NCBI GenBank assembly: GCA_003222245.1 | Contig: QHVH01000011.1 | Coordinates: 5,910-69,909, forward strand | Reading direction: 5' to 3' | DNA from: Blastocatellia bacterium AA13 | Lineage (GTDB): Bacteria > Acidobacteriota > Blastocatellia > UBA7656 | DNA length: 64,000 nt | Shown here: in pieces, positions 19,876-31,093 of the stretch | How positions within the stretch are numbered: position 1 is the stretch's first letter | Layout: the number at the start of each line of letters is the position of its first letter | The notes under the pieces: model-generated | The model's input: only the letters and a program-made list of their open reading frames with translations | The model's database searches: none | Told to the model about the DNA's origin: nothing | Translations under genes and position numbers: made by a program

Positions 19876-20460
19876 ATGGGCAGCAAGACGATTTCGCGAC
19901 GGCGCTTCTTTATTGAGTCGTGCGCCGGAGTCAGCTCAGCGTGGCTACTCTCAAACGTGCTTGATATTCCGTTTGCACAGGAGCACGCGCATCAGGCGGC
20001 GCTATCGCCGACGCCAACGAAGTTAGAATTCCTTTCTCCGGAACAGGCTGCCGAGATCGAAGCAATTGCTGCCCAGATCATTCCTACCGATGAAACCCCG
20101 GGCGCCCGCGAAGCGCGTGTCATATATTTTATCGATCGCGCCTTGGCGACCTTCGCCTCAGACGATCGTCCTGCCGTTATGAAAGGCCTCGACGATCTGC
20201 AATCACGAGTGAGGAAACGGTTCAAGAACTCGGGCAAATTCTCCGAGCTTAAGTCGAAACAGCAGATCGAGGTGCTCAAGTCTATTGAGAAGGGGAGCTT
20301 CTTCGAACTCATCAGGACGATGACGGTGTGCGGTATGTTCGCCGACCCCTCATATGGAGGCAACTACAACGAGATCGGGTGGAAGATGGTCGGCTTCTCC
20401 GACGATTTTGCCTTCGAACCTCCTTTTGGTTTCTATGATCAGGAGAGCGAGGCCAAGTGA
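19876..20460 (+). CDS. Gluconate 2-dehydrogenase subunit 3 family (Tat escort subunit)
   Basis: Tat motif SRRRFF; IIPTDETPGAREARVIYFID; GMFADPSYGGN...GWKMVGF. Confidence 0.88.
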   Translation: MGSKTISRRRFFIESCAGVSSAWLLSNVLDIPFAQEHAHQAALSPTPTKLEFLSPEQAAEIEAIAAQIIPTDETPGAREARVIYFIDRALATFASDDRPAVMKGLDDLQSRVRKRFKNSGKFSELKSKQQIEVLKSIEKGSFFELIRTMTVCGMFADPSYGGNYNEIGWKMVGFSDDFAFEPPFGFYDQESEAK

Positions 20461-22136
20461 TGGCGAAGTCTTACGCTAACATCGCGCGGACAAAGTTTGA
20501 CCAGAACGCGGAAGTCGATTTTCTGATCATAGGCGCCGGCGCTTCCGGTGGGATTATCGCAAAGGAGCTCGCTACGGCAGGGTTTCGCGTGGTCGCGCTC
20601 GAACAGGGACCATATCTCTCTGAAAAAGACTTCGTGCATGACGAGTTCAAGTTCATGCAGCAACGCGCCATCACTAACGATTACAAGCGACAGCCCAATA
20701 CCTTTCGCCATAGCGAGAAGGAAGAAGCCAAGGTTCAACCGGCGATCATCTACGGGCGGCTTGTCGGGGGAGGGAGCGTGCCTTTTGCCGCGAATTACTG
20801 GCGGCTTCACGAAATCGATTTCATCGAGCGAAGCAAGCTCGGTCCGATCGCCGGAACCGGATTCTCCGATTGGCCGATCACATACGCGGAGCTTGAGCCC
20901 TACTACACCAAGGCCGAGTGGGATCTTGGCGTGTCGGGAGCGCCGGGGCCGTTCGATTCGCCTCGATCAAGGCCCTATCCACTCCCTCCGCTTCCGATAA
21001 AGTCATCCGGCGTGCTTGCCGAGCGGGCCGCTCGCAAGCTCGGATGGCACGCGCAGCCCGCTCCGATGGCAATCCTGTCGAAGCCCTATCGCGGCAGAAG
21101 CGCGTGCGCGCATTGCGGATTCTGCTCGTACTTCGGCTGCGAGATGGAAGCGAAGTCGTCGACCCTGACCACCGTGATTCGAGAGGCTGAAAAAACCGGA
21201 CGCTGCGAGATCAGGCCTAACAGCTATGTGCGCCAGATCGAAGTCAACAAAGCTGGGCTCGTCACCGGAGTCACCTACTTTGACGAGAATCGCAAGGAAC
21301 GGTTTCAAGCCGCGAAAGCCGTTGTTCTGAGCGCGAACGGCGCCGAGACACCGAAGCTTCTGCTGATGTCGAAATCCTCGAAATTTCCGCACGGACTTGC
21401 GAACTCGAGCGGCAAGGTCGGCAAGTATCTTATGTTCAACGGCCACGCTAACGCAGGCGCGGTCTTCGAGCAGCAGTTGAACGAGTTCAAAAGCGTGGCG
21501 GTCAGCCGGATAATTCACGATTTCTACAACTGCGATCCGAAACGCGGCTTTTACGGAGGCGGCGGACTGGATACGCGGTTCGTTCAATACCCGCTCGGAT
21601 TTGCGATTCGTGGACTGCCTCCAGACGCGCCGCGATGGGGCCGCGAATACAAACGCATGCTGGCTGAACAGTACACGCGGACTCTGACGGTGCTTTGCCA
21701 TACGACTTCGCTCGCCGTCGAGTCGAACAACATAACGCTCGATCCTCACGTGAAGGATGAATGGGGTCTGCCCGCGGTGCGAGTCACGTATACCGATCAC
21801 GCGAGTGATCTCAAGATGATGCAGTTCCTTCAGGATCGCGCCAAAGAACTGCTCGATGCGGCCGGCGCGCGCAAGGTTTGGGCTCGTCCGGTCGGGCCCC
21901 AGTCGTTCGGCTTCCATCTGTTGGGAACCTGCCGGATGGGAAACGATCCGAAGGAATCAGTGATTGATAAGGATCACCGCACGCACGACGTTCCCAACCT
22001 GTTCATCAGCGACGGAAGCAGCATGGTGACGTCGGGACGAGGCCAGCCTACCTGCACCATTCAGGCGCTGGCTTATCGCGCTTCCGACCGGATCGTCCAG
22101 CTTGCAAAGAGCGGCGAGATCAAGTCAGCGCTCTAG
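20457..22136 (+). CDS. GMC-family FAD oxidoreductase (dehydrogenase large subunit)
   Basis: IIGAGASG, VGGGS, WPITYAELEPYY, CAHCGFCSYFGC Fe-S motif, HLLGTCRMG. Confidence 0.9.
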   Translation: MMAKSYANIARTKFDQNAEVDFLIIGAGASGGIIAKELATAGFRVVALEQGPYLSEKDFVHDEFKFMQQRAITNDYKRQPNTFRHSEKEEAKVQPAIIYGRLVGGGSVPFAANYWRLHEIDFIERSKLGPIAGTGFSDWPITYAELEPYYTKAEWDLGVSGAPGPFDSPRSRPYPLPPLPIKSSGVLAERAARKLGWHAQPAPMAILSKPYRGRSACAHCGFCSYFGCEMEAKSSTLTTVIREAEKTGRCEIRPNSYVRQIEVNKAGLVTGVTYFDENRKERFQAAKAVVLSANGAETPKLLLMSKSSKFPHGLANSSGKVGKYLMFNGHANAGAVFEQQLNEFKSVAVSRIIHDFYNCDPKRGFYGGGGLDTRFVQYPLGFAIRGLPPDAPRWGREYKRMLAEQYTRTLTVLCHTTSLAVESNNITLDPHVKDEWGLPAVRVTYTDHASDLKMMQFLQDRAKELLDAAGARKVWARPVGPQSFGFHLLGTCRMGNDPKESVIDKDHRTHDVPNLFISDGSSMVTSGRGQPTCTIQALAYRASDRIVQLAKSGEIKSAL

Positions 22137-22220
22137 CCAGGCCGGATTGTACGGATGAAAGATTCAAAGAAATCCGGCTCTCACTATCGAAATACACCTT
22201 ACCCAAACGAGGAAACTGTG

Positions 22221-22709
22221 ATGAAACGCTTGCGAGTTGTAGCTGCATTATCCCTGGTTGTCGTAGCTTTGGTATTTGCCGCGGCGGCTTATAAATCGAC
22301 ACCGGCCAGCTCAGGAGAGGCAGGCCTCCAGAATCAAGTCGAGTACTCCAGCGCAAAGAGCGCGGCGAATCGGCCCTTCTCCGACGTGGTGCGCGTGGGG
22401 AATATGCTCTACCTTTCAGGCAAGCTAGGGACGGACAGCAGCGGGAAACTCGCCGTCGGCGGCATCACCGCCGAGACAAAGCAGGCTCTCGAGAACATCA
22501 AAGCGGTGCTCGCGAGCAACGGCTCTTCGCTCGACAACGTCGTCAAAAGCACGGTCATGCTTGCGGATATGAAGGAATGGGCCGATATGAATTCGGTTTA
22601 CACGACCTTCTTCAAGAAAGAACGCATGCCGGCCCGCAGCGCCTTTGGAGTGACAGGCCTCGCTCTTAACGCTCGCGTTGAAATTGAGTGTGTGGCTACG
22701 GTGAAGTGA
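22221..22709 (+). CDS. RidA/YjgF family protein with N-terminal signal peptide
   Basis: LYLSG, VVKSTVMLADM, MN.VY, PARSA, VEIEC; hydrophobic leader MKRLRVVAALSLVVVALVFAAAA. Confidence 0.88.
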   Translation: MKRLRVVAALSLVVVALVFAAAAYKSTPASSGEAGLQNQVEYSSAKSAANRPFSDVVRVGNMLYLSGKLGTDSSGKLAVGGITAETKQALENIKAVLASNGSSLDNVVKSTVMLADMKEWADMNSVYTTFFKKERMPARSAFGVTGLALNARVEIECVATVK

Positions 22710-22824: not shown

Positions 22825-23172
22825 CTATACCCCCGCAAATGGGATCAGATCATCAACGCGTGTAATAAGAGGTTGATCAATTCCGGCGGAATCCGCTTCC
22901 GCATATACGTCCGCGGCACTTGCTCCTGATGCTATGAGGCGATCCCCCTTTAACGCGATCCATTGACCGGCGTATTCCTGGCGGTGCTCATCGAGCCATT
23001 TCATTTCCCTGGTAAATTCTTCGTTGGTGACTATCAGCGGCGCACGCCCATCTTTTGCCTGAGGAGCTGCCGGAGCCAGCCTACGATCGAGAAGGGCATA
23101 GAGTCTTCGCTGCTCAGAAATCGTAAGCTCATTGACCTTCTTCACCAATTCATCAAACTCGATTTGAGCCAT
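22825..23172 (-). CDS. DUF5678-like small protein
   Basis: WLDEHRQEYAGQWIALKGDRLIASG...P.I.RV pattern; AGGTAGG upstream. Confidence 0.7.
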   Translation of the reverse strand: MAQIEFDELVKKVNELTISEQRRLYALLDRRLAPAAPQAKDGRAPLIVTNEEFTREMKWLDEHRQEYAGQWIALKGDRLIASGASAADVYAEADSAGIDQPLITRVDDLIPFAGV

Positions 23173-23263: not shown

Positions 23264-23438
23264 AGTCACTCTGTACGCGATTCCGCTTGTCACCGGTCAC
23301 GGGTCAAACTAGTATTCCGTCTCCCAAGGGTTGCGCGTTTTCAGATCAATCAACCGAATCCGTAGCAGACCGAAGAACAGAAAGGCAGTTCGAAGGAGAG
23401 CCTTCACTGAGAAGCTCACGCTCTCAACCTCTCAACCA

Positions 23439-24923
23439 ATGATGCGAGCGGATCGAAGAGTACACCGAGCGAGGCGCAGCAATGGAGCGGCAGCGCGTTT
23501 GCGTATAGCTCTCCTGATCTCCGCAACCATGCTGCTTGCATTTCCGCTCAGCATTTCAGCGCACGACATCCCCAACGACGTCACGATTAATGTCTTTCTG
23601 AAGCCCGAAGGACAAACCCTGCGGCTGCTTGCGAGAGTGCCGCTCAAGGCTTGCCGAGACGTCGACTATCCCCGACGTGGGGCCGGATTTCTGGATATTG
23701 CGCGAGCCGGTGATTCGCTGAGAGACGCGGCTACGCAATGGATTTCCGATGACGTGAATCTCTACGAGGGCAGTCAGCTTCTCGAGAAACCGACGGTGAT
23801 AGCCGTACGCGTATCGCTCGAATCTGACCGGTCCTTTGAGTCGTATGACTCGGCTCTTGACCATATAGCGAGCCCTCCACTCGCAAACAACATCGATCTC
23901 TACTGGAATCAGGGTCTGCTGGATGTGTTGTTCGAATATCCGATTCGCTCCGATCAATCTGACTTCTCGATTGAAGCTTCATTTGCGAAACTGGGATTGC
24001 AGGTCAACACGGTGCTTCGATTCCTGCCGCCGGGCGGCGCAGTCCGAGCGTTTGAGATAACCGGCGACGAGGGCCTCATCAGGTTGGACCCGAGATGGTA
24101 TCAAGCCGCATTGCGCTTTGTGGGAGCGGGATTCCTGCACATTCTGGGCGGGACGGATCATCTGCTCTTTCTCTTCTGCCTTGTCATCCCGTTCAGACGC
24201 TTCGCTGCGTTGATAAAAGTGGTGACCGCCTTTACTGTAGCTCACTCGATTACGCTCATTGCTTCTGCTTACAACCTTGGGCCTGACGCTCTATGGTTTC
24301 CAGCCTTCATAGAAACACTGATTGCGGTTTCGATTGTGTACATGGCTCTGGAGAACATCGTCGGAGCCGGCAAGGTGGGCAGAAGATGGGCGGTCGCGCT
24401 CGGCTTCGGCCTGATTCACGGGTTCGGTTTCTCATTCGCTCTGAGCCGGACGCTGCAATTCGCCGGGTCGCACCTGCTCACGTCGCTTTTGTCATTCAAC
24501 ATCGGCGTCGAGTTGGGCCAGCTCCTCGTTCTCGTTTTGCTGATACCGGCTCTGGAATTGCTCTTTCGATTCGTCGTAGCCGAACGAATCGGGACGATAA
24601 TTCTCTCCGCGATCGTCGCTCACACCGGCTGGCACTGGATGATGGATCGCTGCGACCGGCTTAGGGCGTTTGGGTGGTCCGCGTTGAGCGCAGCAACCCT
24701 GGCGAGCGCGATGCGCTGGTTGATGGCGCTGATCGTGCTCGGCTTGATCGTGTTTCTATCGCGGGAGATGTCCAAAAACCGCCAAGGTGCTTTAATCGCA
24801 AATACTCAAGAGCCTGAAAGTCAGCTCGACGCGGGTAGAATTGAGAAGCCGAAGGGCCGGCGGTTCTCTATACAGTCGTTTCTGCGCATGCTTCGTCGTG
24901 ATGAAAAGGGAGGAACCGTATGA
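23439..24923 (+). CDS. HupE/UreJ-family membrane protein with large periplasmic domain (start uncertain)
   Basis: HILGGTDHLLFL, TAFTVAHSITL, FGLIHGFGF, SFNIGVELGQL; signal peptide ending SA-HDIP. Confidence 0.85.
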   Translation: MMRADRRVHRARRSNGAAARLRIALLISATMLLAFPLSISAHDIPNDVTINVFLKPEGQTLRLLARVPLKACRDVDYPRRGAGFLDIARAGDSLRDAATQWISDDVNLYEGSQLLEKPTVIAVRVSLESDRSFESYDSALDHIASPPLANNIDLYWNQGLLDVLFEYPIRSDQSDFSIEASFAKLGLQVNTVLRFLPPGGAVRAFEITGDEGLIRLDPRWYQAALRFVGAGFLHILGGTDHLLFLFCLVIPFRRFAALIKVVTAFTVAHSITLIASAYNLGPDALWFPAFIETLIAVSIVYMALENIVGAGKVGRRWAVALGFGLIHGFGFSFALSRTLQFAGSHLLTSLLSFNIGVELGQLLVLVLLIPALELLFRFVVAERIGTIILSAIVAHTGWHWMMDRCDRLRAFGWSALSAATLASAMRWLMALIVLGLIVFLSREMSKNRQGALIANTQEPESQLDAGRIEKPKGRRFSIQSFLRMLRRDEKGGTV

Positions 24924-25963
24924 TTAACTTCTGTCGTTTGATGTCGGTAGTTGTTGCACTGGCGGTTGTAGCCGGAGCATCGGTTTCCACTCAGAGCGCT
25001 CAGCCCGTCAATGATCTGCCTAATACCTATGCCACAGTAGAGAACTGGGCGAAGATGCCCGAAGGCCGCATCTGGGGCGCGACCAGCGCAGTAGAGATTG
25101 ATCGCGACGGCAAGTCAATCTGGGTGGGCGAACGCTGCGGCGCAAATTCATGCGCCGGATCAACAATGGCATCGGTGCTCAAGTTCGACGAAACCGGAAA
25201 ACTCGTCAAGAGCTTTGGCGAAGGAATGTTCATTTTTCCTCACGGCATGCACGTGGACCGTCAAGGAAACGTCTGGGTGACGGACGGCGTTCCGCCCGGC
25301 GCGGCCAACAATCCCGCCGCCGCGGGCAAGGGACACATCGTCGTGAAATTCAGCCCCGAAGGAAAAGTTCTTCTGACGCTCGGAAAAGCCGGTGTAACCG
25401 GAGACGGCCCGGATACCTTCAATCAACCATCGGATGTAGTCACCGCGCCCAACGGAGACATCTTTGTCGCCGATGGACACGGAGGAAATTCGAACGCCCG
25501 CATCGTGAAGTTTTCCAAAGACGGCAAATTCATCAAGGCCTGGGGAAGGAAGGGCACGGCGCCCGGCGAGTTTGATACTCCGCACGCGCTGGCGTTCGAT
25601 TCACGAGGCCGATTGTTCGTCGCGGACCGCAACAACAACCGTCTTCAGATTTTCGATCAGGACGGCAAGTTCCTCGAAGAGTGGAAACAGTTCAGCCGCA
25701 TCAGCGGGCTCTACATCGATAAGAACGACGTTCTATATGCCGCGGATTCCGAATCCAATACGGCTCGTCATCCCGGCTGGAAGCGCGGCATCCGAGTCGG
25801 CAGCGCCAAAGACGGAAAAGTGTGGGCATTCATCCCCGATCCCGAAGCAAGCCCCGACAAGAGCGCTACCAGCGCAGCCGAAGGCGTCGCAGCCGATGCA
25901 AAAGGCAACATCTACGGCGCCGAGGTCGGGCCAAAAGCGTTGAAGAGATACGTCAAGAAGTAG
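24920..25963 (+). CDS. Secreted NHL beta-propeller, peptidyl-alpha-hydroxyglycine alpha-amidating lyase (PAL)-like
   Basis: FPHGMHVD, FNQPSDV, IFVADGHG, GEFDTPHALAFD, VADRNNNRLQIFD repeats; signal peptide; 4-bp overlap with hupE. Confidence 0.85.
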   Translation: MINFCRLMSVVVALAVVAGASVSTQSAQPVNDLPNTYATVENWAKMPEGRIWGATSAVEIDRDGKSIWVGERCGANSCAGSTMASVLKFDETGKLVKSFGEGMFIFPHGMHVDRQGNVWVTDGVPPGAANNPAAAGKGHIVVKFSPEGKVLLTLGKAGVTGDGPDTFNQPSDVVTAPNGDIFVADGHGGNSNARIVKFSKDGKFIKAWGRKGTAPGEFDTPHALAFDSRGRLFVADRNNNRLQIFDQDGKFLEEWKQFSRISGLYIDKNDVLYAADSESNTARHPGWKRGIRVGSAKDGKVWAFIPDPEASPDKSATSAAEGVAADAKGNIYGAEVGPKALKRYVKK

Positions 25964-26049
25964 GGCGCGATTCGAATCATAGACTTTCAATTCGGGCGGT
26001 GCTAGAGTGGCCTTCAGGACGCTGAACCTTCTCACCTGAAGGGGGCAAC

Positions 26050-27396
26050 ATGCACATTTTATCGAGGATCACGGGCGCGCTCGGCGGCGTAGCAGTGCTT
26101 GCGATTGCCGGCATCGCGTTATCCGGAGGCGCCGCGGCCGATTCGAAGGAAGGCTCGGTTCCTGCAAAGCCTACCTTCACAAAAGACATTCTTCCGATCA
26201 TGCAGAAGAAGTGTCAGGACTGCCATCGAGAGGGCGGTATGGCTCCGATGCCGCTGCGGTCCTACGAAGATGTGCGGCCGTGGGCGCGCGCGATCAAGGA
26301 AAAGGTCGTTTCGCGATATATGCCTCCCTGGCACATCGACCCCACGGTAGGCGAGTACGATCCTGATCCTTCGCTCAGCGATGCGCAGATTGCCACGATA
26401 GCGAAATGGGTTGATTCCGGCGCGCCTAAAGGCAACCCGTCCGATGCTCCGCCCCCTCGCGTCTTTCCACCCAACAACACCTGGGTGTTCGGCGAGGAAC
26501 CCGATCTCGTCGTCACAAGCGCCGGATTCGAAGTGCCGGCTACGGCGGCCGACCAATATCCGAAGGTGGATGTTCCTACCGGACTCACCGAAGACCGCTA
26601 CATCAAATGGATGCAGGTGATTCCCGAAGATCCCACCGTGCTTCATCACGTTCTTATCTACGCGCTTCAGAGCGAAGCAGCCACCGGAGGCGTGCGCGGG
26701 GTGAAACCCACGCAAGGTAGCAATTCTCTCCTGACTGAGTACGCGAGAGGTAACGACGGAGACATATTCGCCAACGGTACGGCGAAACTGCTGAAAGCGG
26801 GATCAAAGCTGCGGTTCAGTTTTCACTATCATCCCAACGGCTCAAAAGCGGTCAACGAGCATGCCAGGATAGGATTCAAGTTCTTTCCGAAGGGCTATAC
26901 GCCAAAATATCTGATTTCCACCAAAGGGGTCTCGTCTCCGGCTTCTCTGGCGATCCCGCCCGGCGAAGCGAACGCGAGAAGCGATGCTTACTTCAGGCTC
27001 GAAGAGCCCGCAAGACTCGTGAGCTTTCAGCCTCATATGCATTATCGCGGCAAGCGAATGGCGCTCGAGGCAATCCTTCCGGACGGACAGCCGCAGCTTC
27101 TCACCGATGTCGCGCACTTCGTCTGGACCTGGCAGATCACCTACGCCTATAAGACTCCACCTGCGTTTCCAAAGAACACGGTGCTGCACGTGACCTCTTA
27201 TCACGATAATTCGGCGGGCAACAGAGAGAACCCCGATCCTACCGCTTTCGTTGGATGGGGCGATCGAACGGTCGATGAGATGAACATCGGGTGGATCGAC
27301 TTTTACTACATCACCGATCAGGAATACGCGGATCTGCAAAAGCAGAAAGACGGTTCGCCAAAGGCTACTGTAGCGACGGGCTCAGGCCGACAATGA
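26050..27396 (+). CDS. Heme c + copper type II (PHM/DBH-like) monooxygenase fusion, secreted
   Basis: Signal peptide; CQDCH heme motif; VLHHV, FHY, PHMH, DEM copper-ligand motifs in PHM order. Confidence 0.82.
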   Translation: MHILSRITGALGGVAVLAIAGIALSGGAAADSKEGSVPAKPTFTKDILPIMQKKCQDCHREGGMAPMPLRSYEDVRPWARAIKEKVVSRYMPPWHIDPTVGEYDPDPSLSDAQIATIAKWVDSGAPKGNPSDAPPPRVFPPNNTWVFGEEPDLVVTSAGFEVPATAADQYPKVDVPTGLTEDRYIKWMQVIPEDPTVLHHVLIYALQSEAATGGVRGVKPTQGSNSLLTEYARGNDGDIFANGTAKLLKAGSKLRFSFHYHPNGSKAVNEHARIGFKFFPKGYTPKYLISTKGVSSPASLAIPPGEANARSDAYFRLEEPARLVSFQPHMHYRGKRMALEAILPDGQPQLLTDVAHFVWTWQITYAYKTPPAFPKNTVLHVTSYHDNSAGNRENPDPTAFVGWGDRTVDEMNIGWIDFYYITDQEYADLQKQKDGSPKATVATGSGRQ

Positions 27397-27461
27397 CTTT
27401 GATATCCGCTTCGGCAGTATGAGTTGAGCGACTGTCGAGTATAGATCTTGTTTTTATGATT

Positions 27462-28265
27462 TCAGTTTGGCTTCTTATCTTCGGGTGGGCTCACTGTTAC
27501 TTTAACTCTGACGCTATTCGAGAGTTCTGAATCACTCGCGGACAACTCAATTTCATAGGCGCCGGATGCGGCGAACCGCGCTCGCGTAATCGCTCTGGTT
27601 GAATCGGAAAAAGAGACCTCTCCGGGCCCGCTTATCTTCCTCCATGCCGTCGCCGGCTTGCCCCCGCGGGGGAGTCCGTCGTCTTCGATGCTGCCGTTCA
27701 ACGCGAGATCTTGATCCAACCGCACCGTGAAGCTTACCGCCGCGAGCGTGTCACCGCCGGCGTTAATATCCGCAAGCGGATTAATAACCTGAATCGCGGG
27801 GGCTCGGTTCACGCACACGAACTTCGGCGCCTTCGTCGAATCAAGGCCATTGATCACTTTCTTTGCGCTCGCGAGCTCCAGCTCATATAACGGATCCATT
27901 GTTTTGACGGTCGTAGTCGAGATCAAACCTGCAATCCGGACCGTCCACTGAATCTTGCCGTCGAAGTCGCCCGGCACGATCATGCTGCAGGCGAAACGAT
28001 GCCGCCCCGTCAGGAAGCGCGTCGGCTGATTTCGATCCGCGGCTCCTGGCGTGAAGGCGTTATTAACGCCGGGCTCAATCTCTACATCGATATGATTGGT
28101 GTTGAAGTAACCGAAGGACAGCGTGAGCGTGCCGTCTTTATTTTTCACAAAGCCGTCATATTGAAGATAAATCGGCTGAGAAGCCTGAGCTTGCGCCAGC
28201 GCTTCTTGGGTCCGCGCGCCGGCAAATATGATCAGGGAGGCAACGCACAGAAAGGCTCGCGACAT
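27462..28265 (-). CDS. Secreted hypothetical protein with C-terminal PKD/Ig-like domain
   Basis: AGGAGG RBS, signal peptide, DDGLP...W.KISGPG.VSF...F...G.YE..L.ASD PKD-like pattern. Confidence 0.65.
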   Translation of the reverse strand: MSRAFLCVASLIIFAGARTQEALAQAQASQPIYLQYDGFVKNKDGTLTLSFGYFNTNHIDVEIEPGVNNAFTPGAADRNQPTRFLTGRHRFACSMIVPGDFDGKIQWTVRIAGLISTTTVKTMDPLYELELASAKKVINGLDSTKAPKFVCVNRAPAIQVINPLADINAGGDTLAAVSFTVRLDQDLALNGSIEDDGLPRGGKPATAWRKISGPGEVSFSDSTRAITRARFAASGAYEIELSASDSELSNSVRVKVTVSPPEDKKPN

Positions 28266-28366: not shown

Positions 28367-29017
28367 TTAATCGAGCCGCCGATAATAAGACTCGCCCGCG
28401 CAGGCGCGGCAGAGTACGCGGCCCTCTCTGACCACTTCGCGGCGGTCGTTTACACCTTCGCCGCATTCCTCGCATTGAACCCTTGAAACCGGACGGCCGG
28501 GCTGATCCTCTTCCGGCAGCTCGATCGAAACGCGCTCGACTTTGAAGAGCGATTCATCGGGGAGAATTTTATAAGCCTTCAACTGCCGTTGGTACTTATC
28601 CGATATTTCAGGAAAGACGCAATCGGCTACTTCGCGGGAAGAATCCAGCGCCACTACGCGCACCGCTTGCCTTGTTCCGGTGTTCAGAAAAGTCGCCGCG
28701 AGTTTTCCGTAGTCGCGGAACTTCATTGTGCGCTTTCCGAGGCGGCACCCGGTTACCGTATTGACCGCGTCGGCGGCGCAACGATCAATCTCGACGAAGA
28801 CGAGCATCTTCTTTTTGTCGGCTCCTCGCGGATCCTCGATGCCGACCTCGCGGCAGCCAAGCATCGCCATTCTCACGCCGAGCACCTGGCCTGCACACAT
28901 ATGGCCGTGTGATCGCTCGGCCTCTACCAGCAGCTCATCAAGAGATTCCATGAATTCTGTCTTGTTCGGAATGCGCTTTTGTGTTCGTCGATGCGTCTCA
29001 ATCAGCGCCATCAACAT
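28367..29017 (-). CDS. FmdE-family protein with C-terminal zinc finger
   Basis: [33 protein letters not shown]...CRAC; alternative start at 28951. Confidence 0.87.
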
Positions 29018-30237
29018 CAGTCGCCGGCTGCCGCGGGCGCCAGCTCGGTGTGAACCGGCGAGACTATTCGCGTTTCTTCGCGCGGCAGCATGTAGGCGAA
29101 TATCGTGCTCAGCATCGTCGCTCCCGAAGCTATTACCATCACGTTACGAAATCCAAACGCCGGCACGAGGTTATCCAGTAGAGCCGGGGAAAGAGCGCCG
29201 ATGCCCCAAGCGGCTCCCATCATCAACGCCGATACCGTGCTGGTCTCGCCCGGTACAAGTTCCTGCGCCATTGCGACATTCACAGGGATCGTCGACAGCA
29301 GTGCGAAACCGCCAAGCCCGAGGAACGCGAAGCTCAACGGGCCGCTAGTCAGGAACGCCGCCATCATCAGCGGACCCGAGAGCAATCCCGAATATAAAGT
29401 TACCGCGCGGCCCGACATTCGTTCCGCCAGAAAACCGCCCGCGAGACCGCCGATGCCCCCGAGCAACAAGAACACAGTGAGACCGCCGCCGGCTCCGGTG
29501 ACCTGATACCCTCTTTCGCCCAACAAGAAAGGCAGATAGTTGTTCGTGGTCATCTGCATGCCGGAACGAATCACCGTGATTATGTAGAGACAAAGCAGCG
29601 GCTTCCACACCGGCCAAAACGATGCGGCCAGATTCGGTTTGAGCCGCAGTGCGCCGGTCGCGTCACGCTGGTGGCGTTCGTGCGCGGGAAGCGGAGGACA
29701 GATCACATAGAGAACGGCGCTCGTGAGAAGTCCTATCGCGGCGGCGTAGTATGTACGTCCGAGGCCGAACAGCGTGATGAAAAAAGCAATTCCAATCGGG
29801 CCGATCGAGTAGCCTATGCTTCCCATCGCCGAGAACACCGCCAGACCGACTCTCCGCCGTTCACCGGACGAAACCGAAGCCATCGCGGCAGCCTGCGGAT
29901 GAAACGAGCCTATTCCGATTCCGCCTGCAATTAGAATCGCGAGCAGCACTCCATACGAAGGAGCAAGTCCGATCATCGATATGAAGACTCCGGTAATCGC
30001 GGGGCCGAAAACCGCGAATGACCGTCTGGCGTAGCGGTCAGAGATGATCCCGTAAACGGGCTGCATCAGCGACGACGATATTGCGTACAGCGGAGCGAGC
30101 CAGAAGACCTGCCCCGAGCTGAGGTGCAGATTGTCCTTGAGAAGCGGCAGAAGCGGAAAGATTATGCTGGAATACGAGTCGTTGACGAAGTGACCCGCGC
30201 AAAGCGCCGAAAGAGTCAGTTTGTCGCGTTTCCTCAT
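29017..30237 (-). CDS. MFS transporter (Fsr-like)
   Basis: GHFVND.Y, QPVYG.ISDR, FHPQA motifs; about 12 hydrophobic segments. Confidence 0.87.
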
Positions 30238-30277: not shown

Positions 30278-31093
30278 TCAGACTCGAGCAGTCGTCCTGC
30301 CTTCGAGCTGCGCGAACATGCGCTCTCGCGCCACGCCGATAAAATGATCGAAGATCGCGCGAGACAGACTGTCGTTCTGCCATCCTATTTCGGGGTGCCA
30401 TTGCACGCCGAGTATGAACTGGCCGCTTCTCGTATTCTCGACGGCTTCGATGACGCCGTCCGGGGCCCACGCAACCGGAACCAGATCTCGGCCGACGTTT
30501 TCAACTGCCTGATGATGATGGCTGTTAACGGCCGCGCGCGTCCCGCCGGCAAGCCGCGCAAGCAGGGAGTCTTCAGTGATGCTGATCGAGTGCTGATGCC
30601 GCTCTTGAATATCGCCCTGGCGATGCCTGATAGGATCTTTTGTTTGGGAAGGGATGTCTTGAATCAGGGTTCCTCCGCGATATACGTTGAGTACCTGGAT
30701 GCCAAAGCAGATGCAGAGCACGGGGAGACCCCGCTTTTCGGCCGCCTCCAGGAGCATCAGATCCGTCTCGTCGCGTCTCGGAACGTTGATCCCGCAATCC
30801 AGGATGGGCTCACGGCCATACCTGAGTGGATCGACATCGCTGTCCGACCCGGACAGGCATAGCCCATCGAGCTTTTCAACTACTGAGTCGATGTATTCGC
30901 GATTCGGCAGAAGCGGGAGGAGTATCGGCGTGCCGCCCGAGGCGAGGATCGCGTCCGGATATCCAATCCTGAGGTTGTAGTAGCTGGTCTCCCAGTTAAA
31001 GCGGCACGATATGCCGATGGCTGGTCTCAATTCTGAATTCAAGCTAGCAGCCCCTTCCCCGCTAAATGGCGTCCGGAGGTATCGTCGAAACAA
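30278..31093 (-). CDS. Gamma-glutamyl-gamma-aminobutyrate hydrolase family (class I glutamine amidotransferase, C26); start uncertain
   Basis: DVDP..YG, RDE, ICFGIQVLNV, VNSHHHQAV, GVQWHPE. Confidence 0.88.
   Translation of the reverse strand: MFRRYLRTPFSGEGAASLNSELRPAIGISCRFNWETSYYNLRIGYPDAILASGGTPILLPLLPNREYIDSVVEKLDGLCLSGSDSDVDPLRYGREPILDCGINVPRRDETDLMLLEAAEKRGLPVLCICFGIQVLNVYRGGTLIQDIPSQTKDPIRHRQGDIQERHQHSISITEDSLLARLAGGTRAAVNSHHHQAVENVGRDLVPVAWAPDGVIEAVENTRSGQFILGVQWHPEIGWQNDSLSRAIFDHFIGVARERMFAQLEGRTTARV

Follow-up and report, generated by a model that had tools for sequence, protein, structure and literature searches.

The animal copper monooxygenases PHM (peptidylglycine alpha-hydroxylating monooxygenase) and DBH (dopamine beta-hydroxylase) use free ascorbate and are, to our knowledge, known almost only from eukaryotes. 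In two other kinds of copper system, the cytochrome c-fused copper nitrite reductases and the relay of fungal cellobiose dehydrogenase and lytic polysaccharide monooxygenase (LPMO), a haem domain donates electrons to the copper site. No characterised bacterial haem-PHM enzyme was found in full-text literature searches, the coverage of which leaves out subscription journals; passages of PMC6529398 deal with eukaryotic PAM only, the amidating enzyme whose two halves are PHM and the lyase PAL. Here we analysed a locus at positions 23439-28265 of a stretch of 64,000 nucleotides (the window) from contig QHVH01000011.1 of Blastocatellia bacterium AA13. Its central gene, cytPHM, probably encodes a periplasmic dicopper monooxygenase of the PHM/DBH type with a haem c of its own and an immunoglobulin (Ig)-like partner protein, the neighbouring HupE_UreJ_2 and NHL genes being a separate matter.

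An earlier note on the window had described the locus as a split, PAM-like system, in which a fusion of cytochrome c with PHM and a PAL-like NHL propeller would act together with a HupE/UreJ permease. The open reading frames (ORFs) agree with the gene arrangement given there: of four exported or membrane genes in 23439-28265, three lie on the plus strand and the last is convergent on the minus strand, and the first two overlap by 4 bp, the ATG of NHL at 24920 and the TGA of HupE ending at 24923 forming the sequence ATGA (24920-24923). An AGGGAGG-like ribosome site precedes the NHL start at 24920, and the gap of 86 nt between NHL and cytPHM includes a GGGGG-rich ribosome site ahead of cytPHM. 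Hydrophobic signal-like N-termini were read by eye from the translations of the NHL, cytPHM and partner proteins. The features of the locus are as follows.

23439..24923, plus strand: HupE_UreJ_2 membrane protein, 494 aa (ORF; TTG at 23331 is an alternative start)
24920..25963, plus strand: PAL-like NHL beta-propeller, exported, 347 aa (ORF, Pfam NHL)
26050..27396, plus strand: cytPHM, predicted exported haem-c and PHM/DBH-like dicopper monooxygenase, 448 aa (ORF, fold, family profile)
26167..26439, plus strand: haem-c domain, approximately residues 40-130 of cytPHM (CxxCH at 26212-26226; invariant Met91)
26491..27315, plus strand: predicted two-domain PHM/DBH fold, residues 148-422 of cytPHM (CuH ligands H199, H200 and H259; CuM ligands H329, H331 and M411)
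27462..28265, minus strand: secreted partner, 267 aa, with an N-terminal Ig-like and a C-terminal PKD-like domain (ORF; Pfam for the PKD domain)
27783..28202, minus strand: N-domain of the partner, residues 22-161, the conserved part, with predicted docking on the CuM domain (alignment, complex model)

Five motifs are present in the translation of cytPHM: CQDCH (C55, C58, H59), VLHH (H199, H200), FHYH (H259), PHMH (H329, H331) and DEM (M411). These residues and M91 are invariant in alignment A1, which contains 28 close homologues, and the same ten residues are invariant in alignment A4, which contains 26 members of 32-66% identity; the motifs pointed out in the earlier note are therefore not due to chance.

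An AlphaFold2 model of cytPHM was built on 28 homologues (predicted local distance difference test, pLDDT, 80.5) and compared with solved structures. Foldseek placed human DBH first (E 3.9e-14) and rat PHM at 2.7e-13 to 3.7e-10; the next row, which is unrelated, had an E value of 1.4e-5. With the structural aligner VIA, a Z score of 22.1 was obtained for DBH (root-mean-square deviation, rmsd, 2.6 A over 262 residues) and of 20-21.8 for PHM, PNGase F being next with Z of at most 10. Residues 148-422 of the model superpose on residues 55-327 of PHM with an rmsd of 2.6-3.6 A over 243-247 residues. The two-domain PHM sandwich named in the earlier note was thus recovered in the model.

Identity of cytPHM to PHM and DBH is only about 15-16% in the structural alignment, and sequence searches of the PDB with the single cytPHM sequence or with the close-family profile gave no PHM match. 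The broader profile of 26 diverse members (A4) reached both DBH (E 3.4e-10) and PHM (E 1.8e-8). The alignment obtained with this profile sets the family motifs HH, qvHY, HxH and dEM on the copper-ligand motifs of PHM (vHH, qvHY, HtH and dEM), and also on those of DBH, so that the six copper ligands stand in the PHM order, as had been claimed. Two paralogues from the same genome pass the Pfam cutoff for Cu2_monoox_C, with 33.5 and 27.4 bits. A two-domain beta-sandwich, homologous CuH and CuM ligands and sequence similarity, the structural and sequence characters by which a dicopper monooxygenase is recognised, were all found in cytPHM or its profile.

The N-terminal part of cytPHM has the two characters of a class I cytochrome c, the CxxCH motif (C55-x-x-C58-H59) and a distal ligand (Met91), and shows weak matches to Cytochrome_CBB3 and to the cytochrome c 4rlr. 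Met91 is the likely axial ligand of the haem. Compared with PHM (1phm, 1opm, 1sdw) and DBH (4zel), cytPHM shares the two-domain beta-sandwich, the CuH and CuM ligands aligned position for position and a similar ligand spacing. It differs from both in being bacterial and periplasmic, in its N-terminal haem-c domain, in the lack of a DOMON domain, in having a dedicated Ig-like partner and in occurring in multiple copies.

The residues by which PHM binds its substrate were then located in the profile alignment. According to PMC12164859, Arg240 of PHM forms a salt bridge to the C-terminal carboxylate of the substrate. The alignment of PHM 'yrvHtH' on family 'fqpHmH' places Gln327 of cytPHM at this position, which is occupied by Met, Leu, His, Phe, Thr or Ala in the other paralogues of the genome. 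Asn316 and Tyr318 of PHM, which contact the substrate, correspond to Ile413 and Trp415 ('dEMcnly' on 'dEMmigw'). We place cytPHM in the non-coupled dicopper monooxygenase superfamily and, because of these replacements at Arg240 and at Asn316/Tyr318, do not file it as a peptidyl-glycine hydroxylase. Its substrate is probably not a glycine-extended peptide, since cytPHM lacks the arginine by which PHM binds the C-terminal carboxylate.

Loci carrying relatives of cytPHM were screened by hidden Markov model (HMM) scans of six-frame pieces, the HMM for the partner covering residues 22-161 of the 267-aa protein. Of 79 related loci, 54 have the partner N-domain within 6 kb of the enzyme, and where a locus holds a second paralogue pair, this has its own copy of the partner. 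The Vicinamibacterales have a partner of 155 aa, whose gene begins 5 nt past the stop codon of the enzyme. Viewed from the partner, the association is still tighter. Of 301 sampled genomes, 31 have the partner, in up to at least 14 copies, and in genomes with complete lists 32 of 33 partner genes lie at most 1.5 kb from a listed enzyme gene (at least 42 of 75 over all genomes); on closer look the single exception (L141) also has an adjoining enzyme gene. Each of the 20 regions centred on a partner gene, drawn from 17 genomes, has an enzyme gene within about 600 bp. The regular companion of the copper enzyme is the Ig-like domain protein, and NHL and HupE are only occasional neighbours.

The model of the partner N-domain (pLDDT 87) is a plain Ig-like sandwich. 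No Pfam or NCBIfam family and no solved relative were found for this domain by sequence, and structure searches returned generic Ig-like folds only (Foldseek E 0.017 or worse; VIA wide search, Z at most 5.8) or, in the ESM Atlas, unnamed clusters only. Its alignment contains no invariant His, Cys or Met, so that the partner does not look like a copper chaperone.

Three runs predicted a complex of the enzyme with the partner at an ipSAE (interaction prediction score from aligned errors) of 0.84, and the best of 3 controls gave 0.00; the mark set for this score is reached by 116 of 157 solved complexes and by 2 of 215 mismatched pairs. At least 96% of the contacts recur between runs, the pLDDT of the partner is at least 85, and because the partner is without a solved relative the score is not the memory of a known complex. 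On the enzyme, the predicted interface is formed by residues 167-170, 298-304 and 395-408, the last being a conserved loop leading to Asp409-Glu410-Met411. Judged from these models, a heterodimer of the enzyme and the N-terminal Ig-like domain of the partner is most likely the working form. That the convergent PKD-like protein may be a partner had been offered in the earlier note as an aside, and it is the part of that proposal best supported by the loci, the partner-centred regions and the complex score.

The position of the PAL-like gene upstream of cytPHM bears on a rival explanation, a split bacterial PAM. The copper enzyme would then hydroxylate the alpha-carbon of a C-terminal glycine, or a carbon beside an amide or amine nitrogen, the NHL protein would cleave the resulting carbinolamide to amide and aldehyde, and HupE/UreJ would supply the metal. 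We consider this unlikely, although both proteins are true relatives of the two halves of PAM and although, in the window's clade, 11 of the 12 loci with enough upstream DNA have NHL within 6 kb upstream of the enzyme, including one locus (L011) in which HupE-NHL has moved to the other side and is still close to the enzyme. Over all related loci, NHL was found within 6 kb of the enzyme in 12 of 79 and HupE in 9 of 79; the clade of the window, of Blastocatellia type, accounts for 11 of these 12 NHL loci and for all 9 with HupE. NHL is absent within 6 kb in 44 of the 54 enzyme-partner loci. Likewise, of 58 NHL places, all in genomes for which enzyme genes are listed, only 3 are within 3 kb of such a gene, these three in one genus. 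The conserved three-gene unit proposed in the earlier note was not borne out by this survey, and HupE and NHL also occur together without the enzyme.

A looser link is possible. In a distant genus (L128, L129) partner, enzyme and a convergent NHL gene stand together without HupE, and in another locus (L049) a more distant NHL gene lies upstream of the enzyme-partner pair. NHL beside the pair is thereby found in three separate sub-clades of the partnered clade: that of the window, that of L128/L129 and that of L049. The tree was calculated with FastTree from 140 enzyme sequences; it has local supports only, and several long branches were flagged. In one genus of another family (L134, L135; family f69) a one-strand operon encodes a peptidyl-prolyl isomerase (Rotamase_2), HupE_UreJ_2, an AbgT transporter, the partner and the enzyme, with no NHL gene. 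Such pairwise meetings of the four genes across lineages fit facultative co-operation, and they speak for the split PAM; some chance adjacency is to be expected because the families are multi-copy, which speaks against it. The link of NHL and HupE to the enzyme is not entirely a matter of descent. Of the PAM-like system, then, the haem-PHM fusion, the kinship with PAL and the partner stand, and the obligatory three-gene system does not.

PAL (3fvz) matches the NHL protein with E 4e-26 in one stretch of about 165 residues, and PAL is the top solved match for NHL residues 30-200 (E 1e-13), in agreement with the propeller named in the earlier note. The zinc ligands of PAL are His585, His690 and His786 (numbered as in the 5wm0 chain), and its catalytic residue is Tyr654. 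In the printed alignment His585 pairs with NHL His108, and Tyr654 ('sdgY') pairs with His187 ('adgH'), so that the catalytic tyrosine of PAL is replaced. By blade register only, His690 corresponds to His222, Arg706 to Arg237 and His786 to Glu321. The five residues H108, H187, H222, R237 and E321 are invariant in 23 NHL orthologues. The NHL protein is accordingly a genuine relative of PAL, with a putatively altered metal and catalytic site.

Compared with PAL (3fvz, 3fw0), the NHL protein is alike in the homologous stretch and in the counterparts of His585 and, by register, of His690 and Arg706, which are in favour of the split PAM; it is unlike PAL at Tyr654 and, by register, at His786, which together with the replaced substrate residues of PHM count against it. 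It is also free-standing, coupled to HupE_UreJ_2 and usually not located beside a copper enzyme. Peptidyl-glycine amidation by this locus, one of the activities suggested in the earlier note, is unlikely as such because Arg240 of PHM has become Gln, Tyr654 of PAL has become His and the third zinc His of PAL is apparently Glu.

The gene upstream of NHL matches Pfam HupE_UreJ_2 (PF13795) at residues 227-376 (E 8e-40; 136 bits, cutoff 24.5), and its product has a long N-terminal extracytoplasmic part; NHL repeats were found in the second gene with E 3e-23. Of 301 genomes, 60 carry NHL orthologues, frequently more than one (this tally includes the unpublished G024 and G049). HupE_UreJ_2 lies directly upstream of NHL in 12 of 29 NHL loci other than those of the window (families f1, f7 and f25); 1 of these 29, from the window's own family, contains the copper enzyme. 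These counts also argue against the split PAM, and mark HupE_UreJ_2 and NHL as a conserved, translationally coupled pair separate from the copper enzyme. In one HupE-NHL locus without copper enzyme (L117:2565-2993), NHL is followed by a gene for a 142-aa protein with a C-terminal CxxCH, which by eye resembles the cytochrome c' type.

The family of cytPHM is large. A word-indexed search for relatives gave at least 7,923 clusters at 90% identity, whose records are named 'cytochrome c', 'hypothetical' or 'alkyl hydroperoxide reductase'. When the representatives at 50% identity were searched exhaustively with a profile, 28,161 were found at E 1e-3, 18,156 at 1e-10 and 7,384 at 1e-30. The family was found in 33 of 151 sampled Acidobacteriota genomes (one of which, G024, is flagged as unpublished), several with at least 10 matches, and related loci also come from Hydrogenedentota, Nitrospirota, Sumerlaeota and others. 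Three loci labelled uncultured Clostridia (L007, L012 and L013) are about 80% identical to the window locus, have the same four-gene order and are nested among the Blastocatellia loci in the tree; the label looks doubtful.

The source genome has 16 copies of cytPHM, some in tandem arrays of up to five. The 15 paralogues outside the window are arranged in arrays of five, two and two (C9:167063-180328, C47:94660-97434 and C97:175472-178187, respectively) and in six single loci, and no partner, NHL or HupE gene was found near any of the 15. C55, C58, H59 and M91 are kept in all 16 paralogues, and every copper and haem ligand in 14 of the 16. The other two (C92:271436-272962 and C9:179072-180328) keep CxxCH and Met91 without the CuM ligands: one has QxQ for HxH and Thr for Met, the other is without the C-terminal motif. 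They may be degenerate or repurposed. Some longer family members carry extra domains, among them esterase, GDSL lipase, ankyrin, CBM48 and BlaR1 peptidase.

Several points weigh against the reading of cytPHM as a haem-carrying dicopper monooxygenase with a dedicated partner. The partner is missing from 23 of 79 loci and from 15 of the 16 paralogues of the source genome; since it is missing near so many enzyme genes, the enzyme evidently can do without it. The Pfam matches of the window protein fall below the curated cutoffs (Cu2_monoox_C, E 1e-3, 18.9 bits against 23; Cytochrome_CBB3, E 1e-3, 19.4 bits against 27). The models were built without cofactors. The reading as a whole rests on sequence and predicted models.

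Two further points of the same kind concern the chemistry. An AhpC-TSA/Redoxin domain is located N-terminal to the haem in 15 of 18 longer members sampled (for example P0124, P0142, P0143 and P0152), and also in P0121 and P0122, which hints at a thiol or peroxide chemistry that a simple monooxygenase model does not cover. Among 113 ORFs near the paralogues were peptidases of families S15, M18, M20, S8 and M12B, two PmbA/TldD proteins, an OPT transporter and an oligopeptide ABC ATPase, no background rate being available for these counts. The surroundings are somewhat rich in peptidases and peptide transporters, and with NHL in three branches the substrate may be a peptide or amide, and a second step of PAL type may follow.

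The redoxin fusions also support a second rival, in which the PHM-like part would be no monooxygenase and would instead be a copper-handling or a peroxide- or thiol-linked redox protein, such as a haem-copper oxidase or a peroxidase with peroxiredoxin-like domains. AhpC-TSA and thioredoxin genes near two paralogues, and the two paralogues that keep the haem without the CuM ligands, are consistent with it. The full non-coupled CuH/CuM ligand set, however, is invariant across the family alignments, the fold superposes on PHM and DBH at Z above 20, and Pfam finds no redoxin domain in the window protein. We regard this rival as very improbable, and retain the dicopper monooxygenase with haem c and Ig-like partner as the probable reading.

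Upstream of the locus, the window contains a group of genes that could serve the enzyme with electrons.

19876..22709, plus strand: possible accessory cluster of a small subunit with a twin-arginine translocation (Tat) signal (Gluconate_2-dh3), a GMC flavoprotein and an exported RidA (Pfam)

The genes for the Tat small subunit, GMC and RidA lie upstream of the partner gene and in its orientation in L001, L002, L005 and L012; in L014, GMC and small-subunit genes are divergent from an unpartnered enzyme gene. Flavoprotein dehydrogenases of this kind usually have a cytochrome c as third subunit, and no cytochrome c subunit gene adjoins the GMC and small-subunit genes of the window. Other paralogues of the genome adjoin a pyrroloquinoline quinone (PQQ) dehydrogenase and cytochrome c, or alternative complex III and cytochrome c. 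Gene neighbourhood thus gives hints that the fused haem may be fed by periplasmic dehydrogenases such as these. The arrangement resembles the cytochrome c-fused nitrite reductases and the cellobiose dehydrogenase-LPMO relay in that, in principle, a haem domain hands single electrons to copper, and with cellobiose dehydrogenase it has in common a GMC flavoprotein nearby. It is unlike these relays in copper fold and chemistry, and no homology is claimed; the link to GMC is here one of gene neighbourhood only.

Other features of the region were as follows. A gene for a small DUF5678 protein of 115 aa (22825-23172, minus strand) lies between the RidA and HupE genes on the opposite strand. In the 267-aa partner, Pfam identified a K319L-like PKD domain at residues 177-258, and an NCBIfam scan of the locus proteins added nothing decisive. 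Downstream of the partner gene, at 28367-29017 on the minus strand, is a gene for an FmdE-domain protein with a C-terminal DksA/TraR zinc finger, as is also the case in L003:4621-5271; beyond it are an MFS transporter gene (29017-30237) and a Peptidase_C26 gene, gamma-glutamyl hydrolase-like (30278-31093). Scans for promoters and terminators did not do better than on shuffled sequence, with 5 hits where 3.0 were expected and 6 where 6.4 were expected, respectively.

Taking cytPHM as a dicopper monooxygenase with its own haem, a catalytic scheme can be proposed. The haem would take single electrons from the periplasmic pool of cytochromes and dehydrogenases and pass them to CuH and CuM, in place of the ascorbate used by the animal enzymes. 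A C-H bond of the substrate would then be hydroxylated by O2 bound at CuM. The Ig-like domain of the partner would sit on the CuM domain against the loop 395-408, where it could shape or gate the substrate site. The HupE_UreJ_2/NHL pair, with a putative variant metal site of three His and one Glu plus an Arg, would have been placed beside the enzyme in this lineage; it may act on the product of the enzyme, being no fixed part of the system.

In its most extended form the locus would encode a modular periplasmic system for oxidative C-N cleavage, which we think quite doubtful. Electrons would pass from the Tat GMC flavoprotein, which is without its usual cytochrome subunit, to the fused haem, and the dicopper enzyme with its Ig-like subunit would act on peptides or similar molecules, hydroxylating a carbon beside the nitrogen of an amide or amine. 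The carbinolamide would be split by a PAL-like lyase with a metal site of three His and one Glu, served by HupE_UreJ_2, and the exported RidA would handle by-product imines. If true, bacteria would possess a counterpart of animal peptide amidation that is driven by haem and made from exchangeable parts.

The probable reading, a haem-carrying dicopper monooxygenase with an Ig-like partner, would add to the PHM/DBH enzymes a very large bacterial branch with a built-in haem donor and a dedicated partner, of which a single genome of soil Acidobacteriota can hold up to a dozen copies or more. The characterisation of one member would show how a cytochrome can feed a non-coupled CuH/CuM site, and would provide a soluble bacterial model for an enzyme class whose mechanism is debated. 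The occasional PAL-like neighbour makes the origin of the two-step amidation pathway testable. Such a member would also reveal what these abundant soil bacteria hydroxylate in their periplasm.

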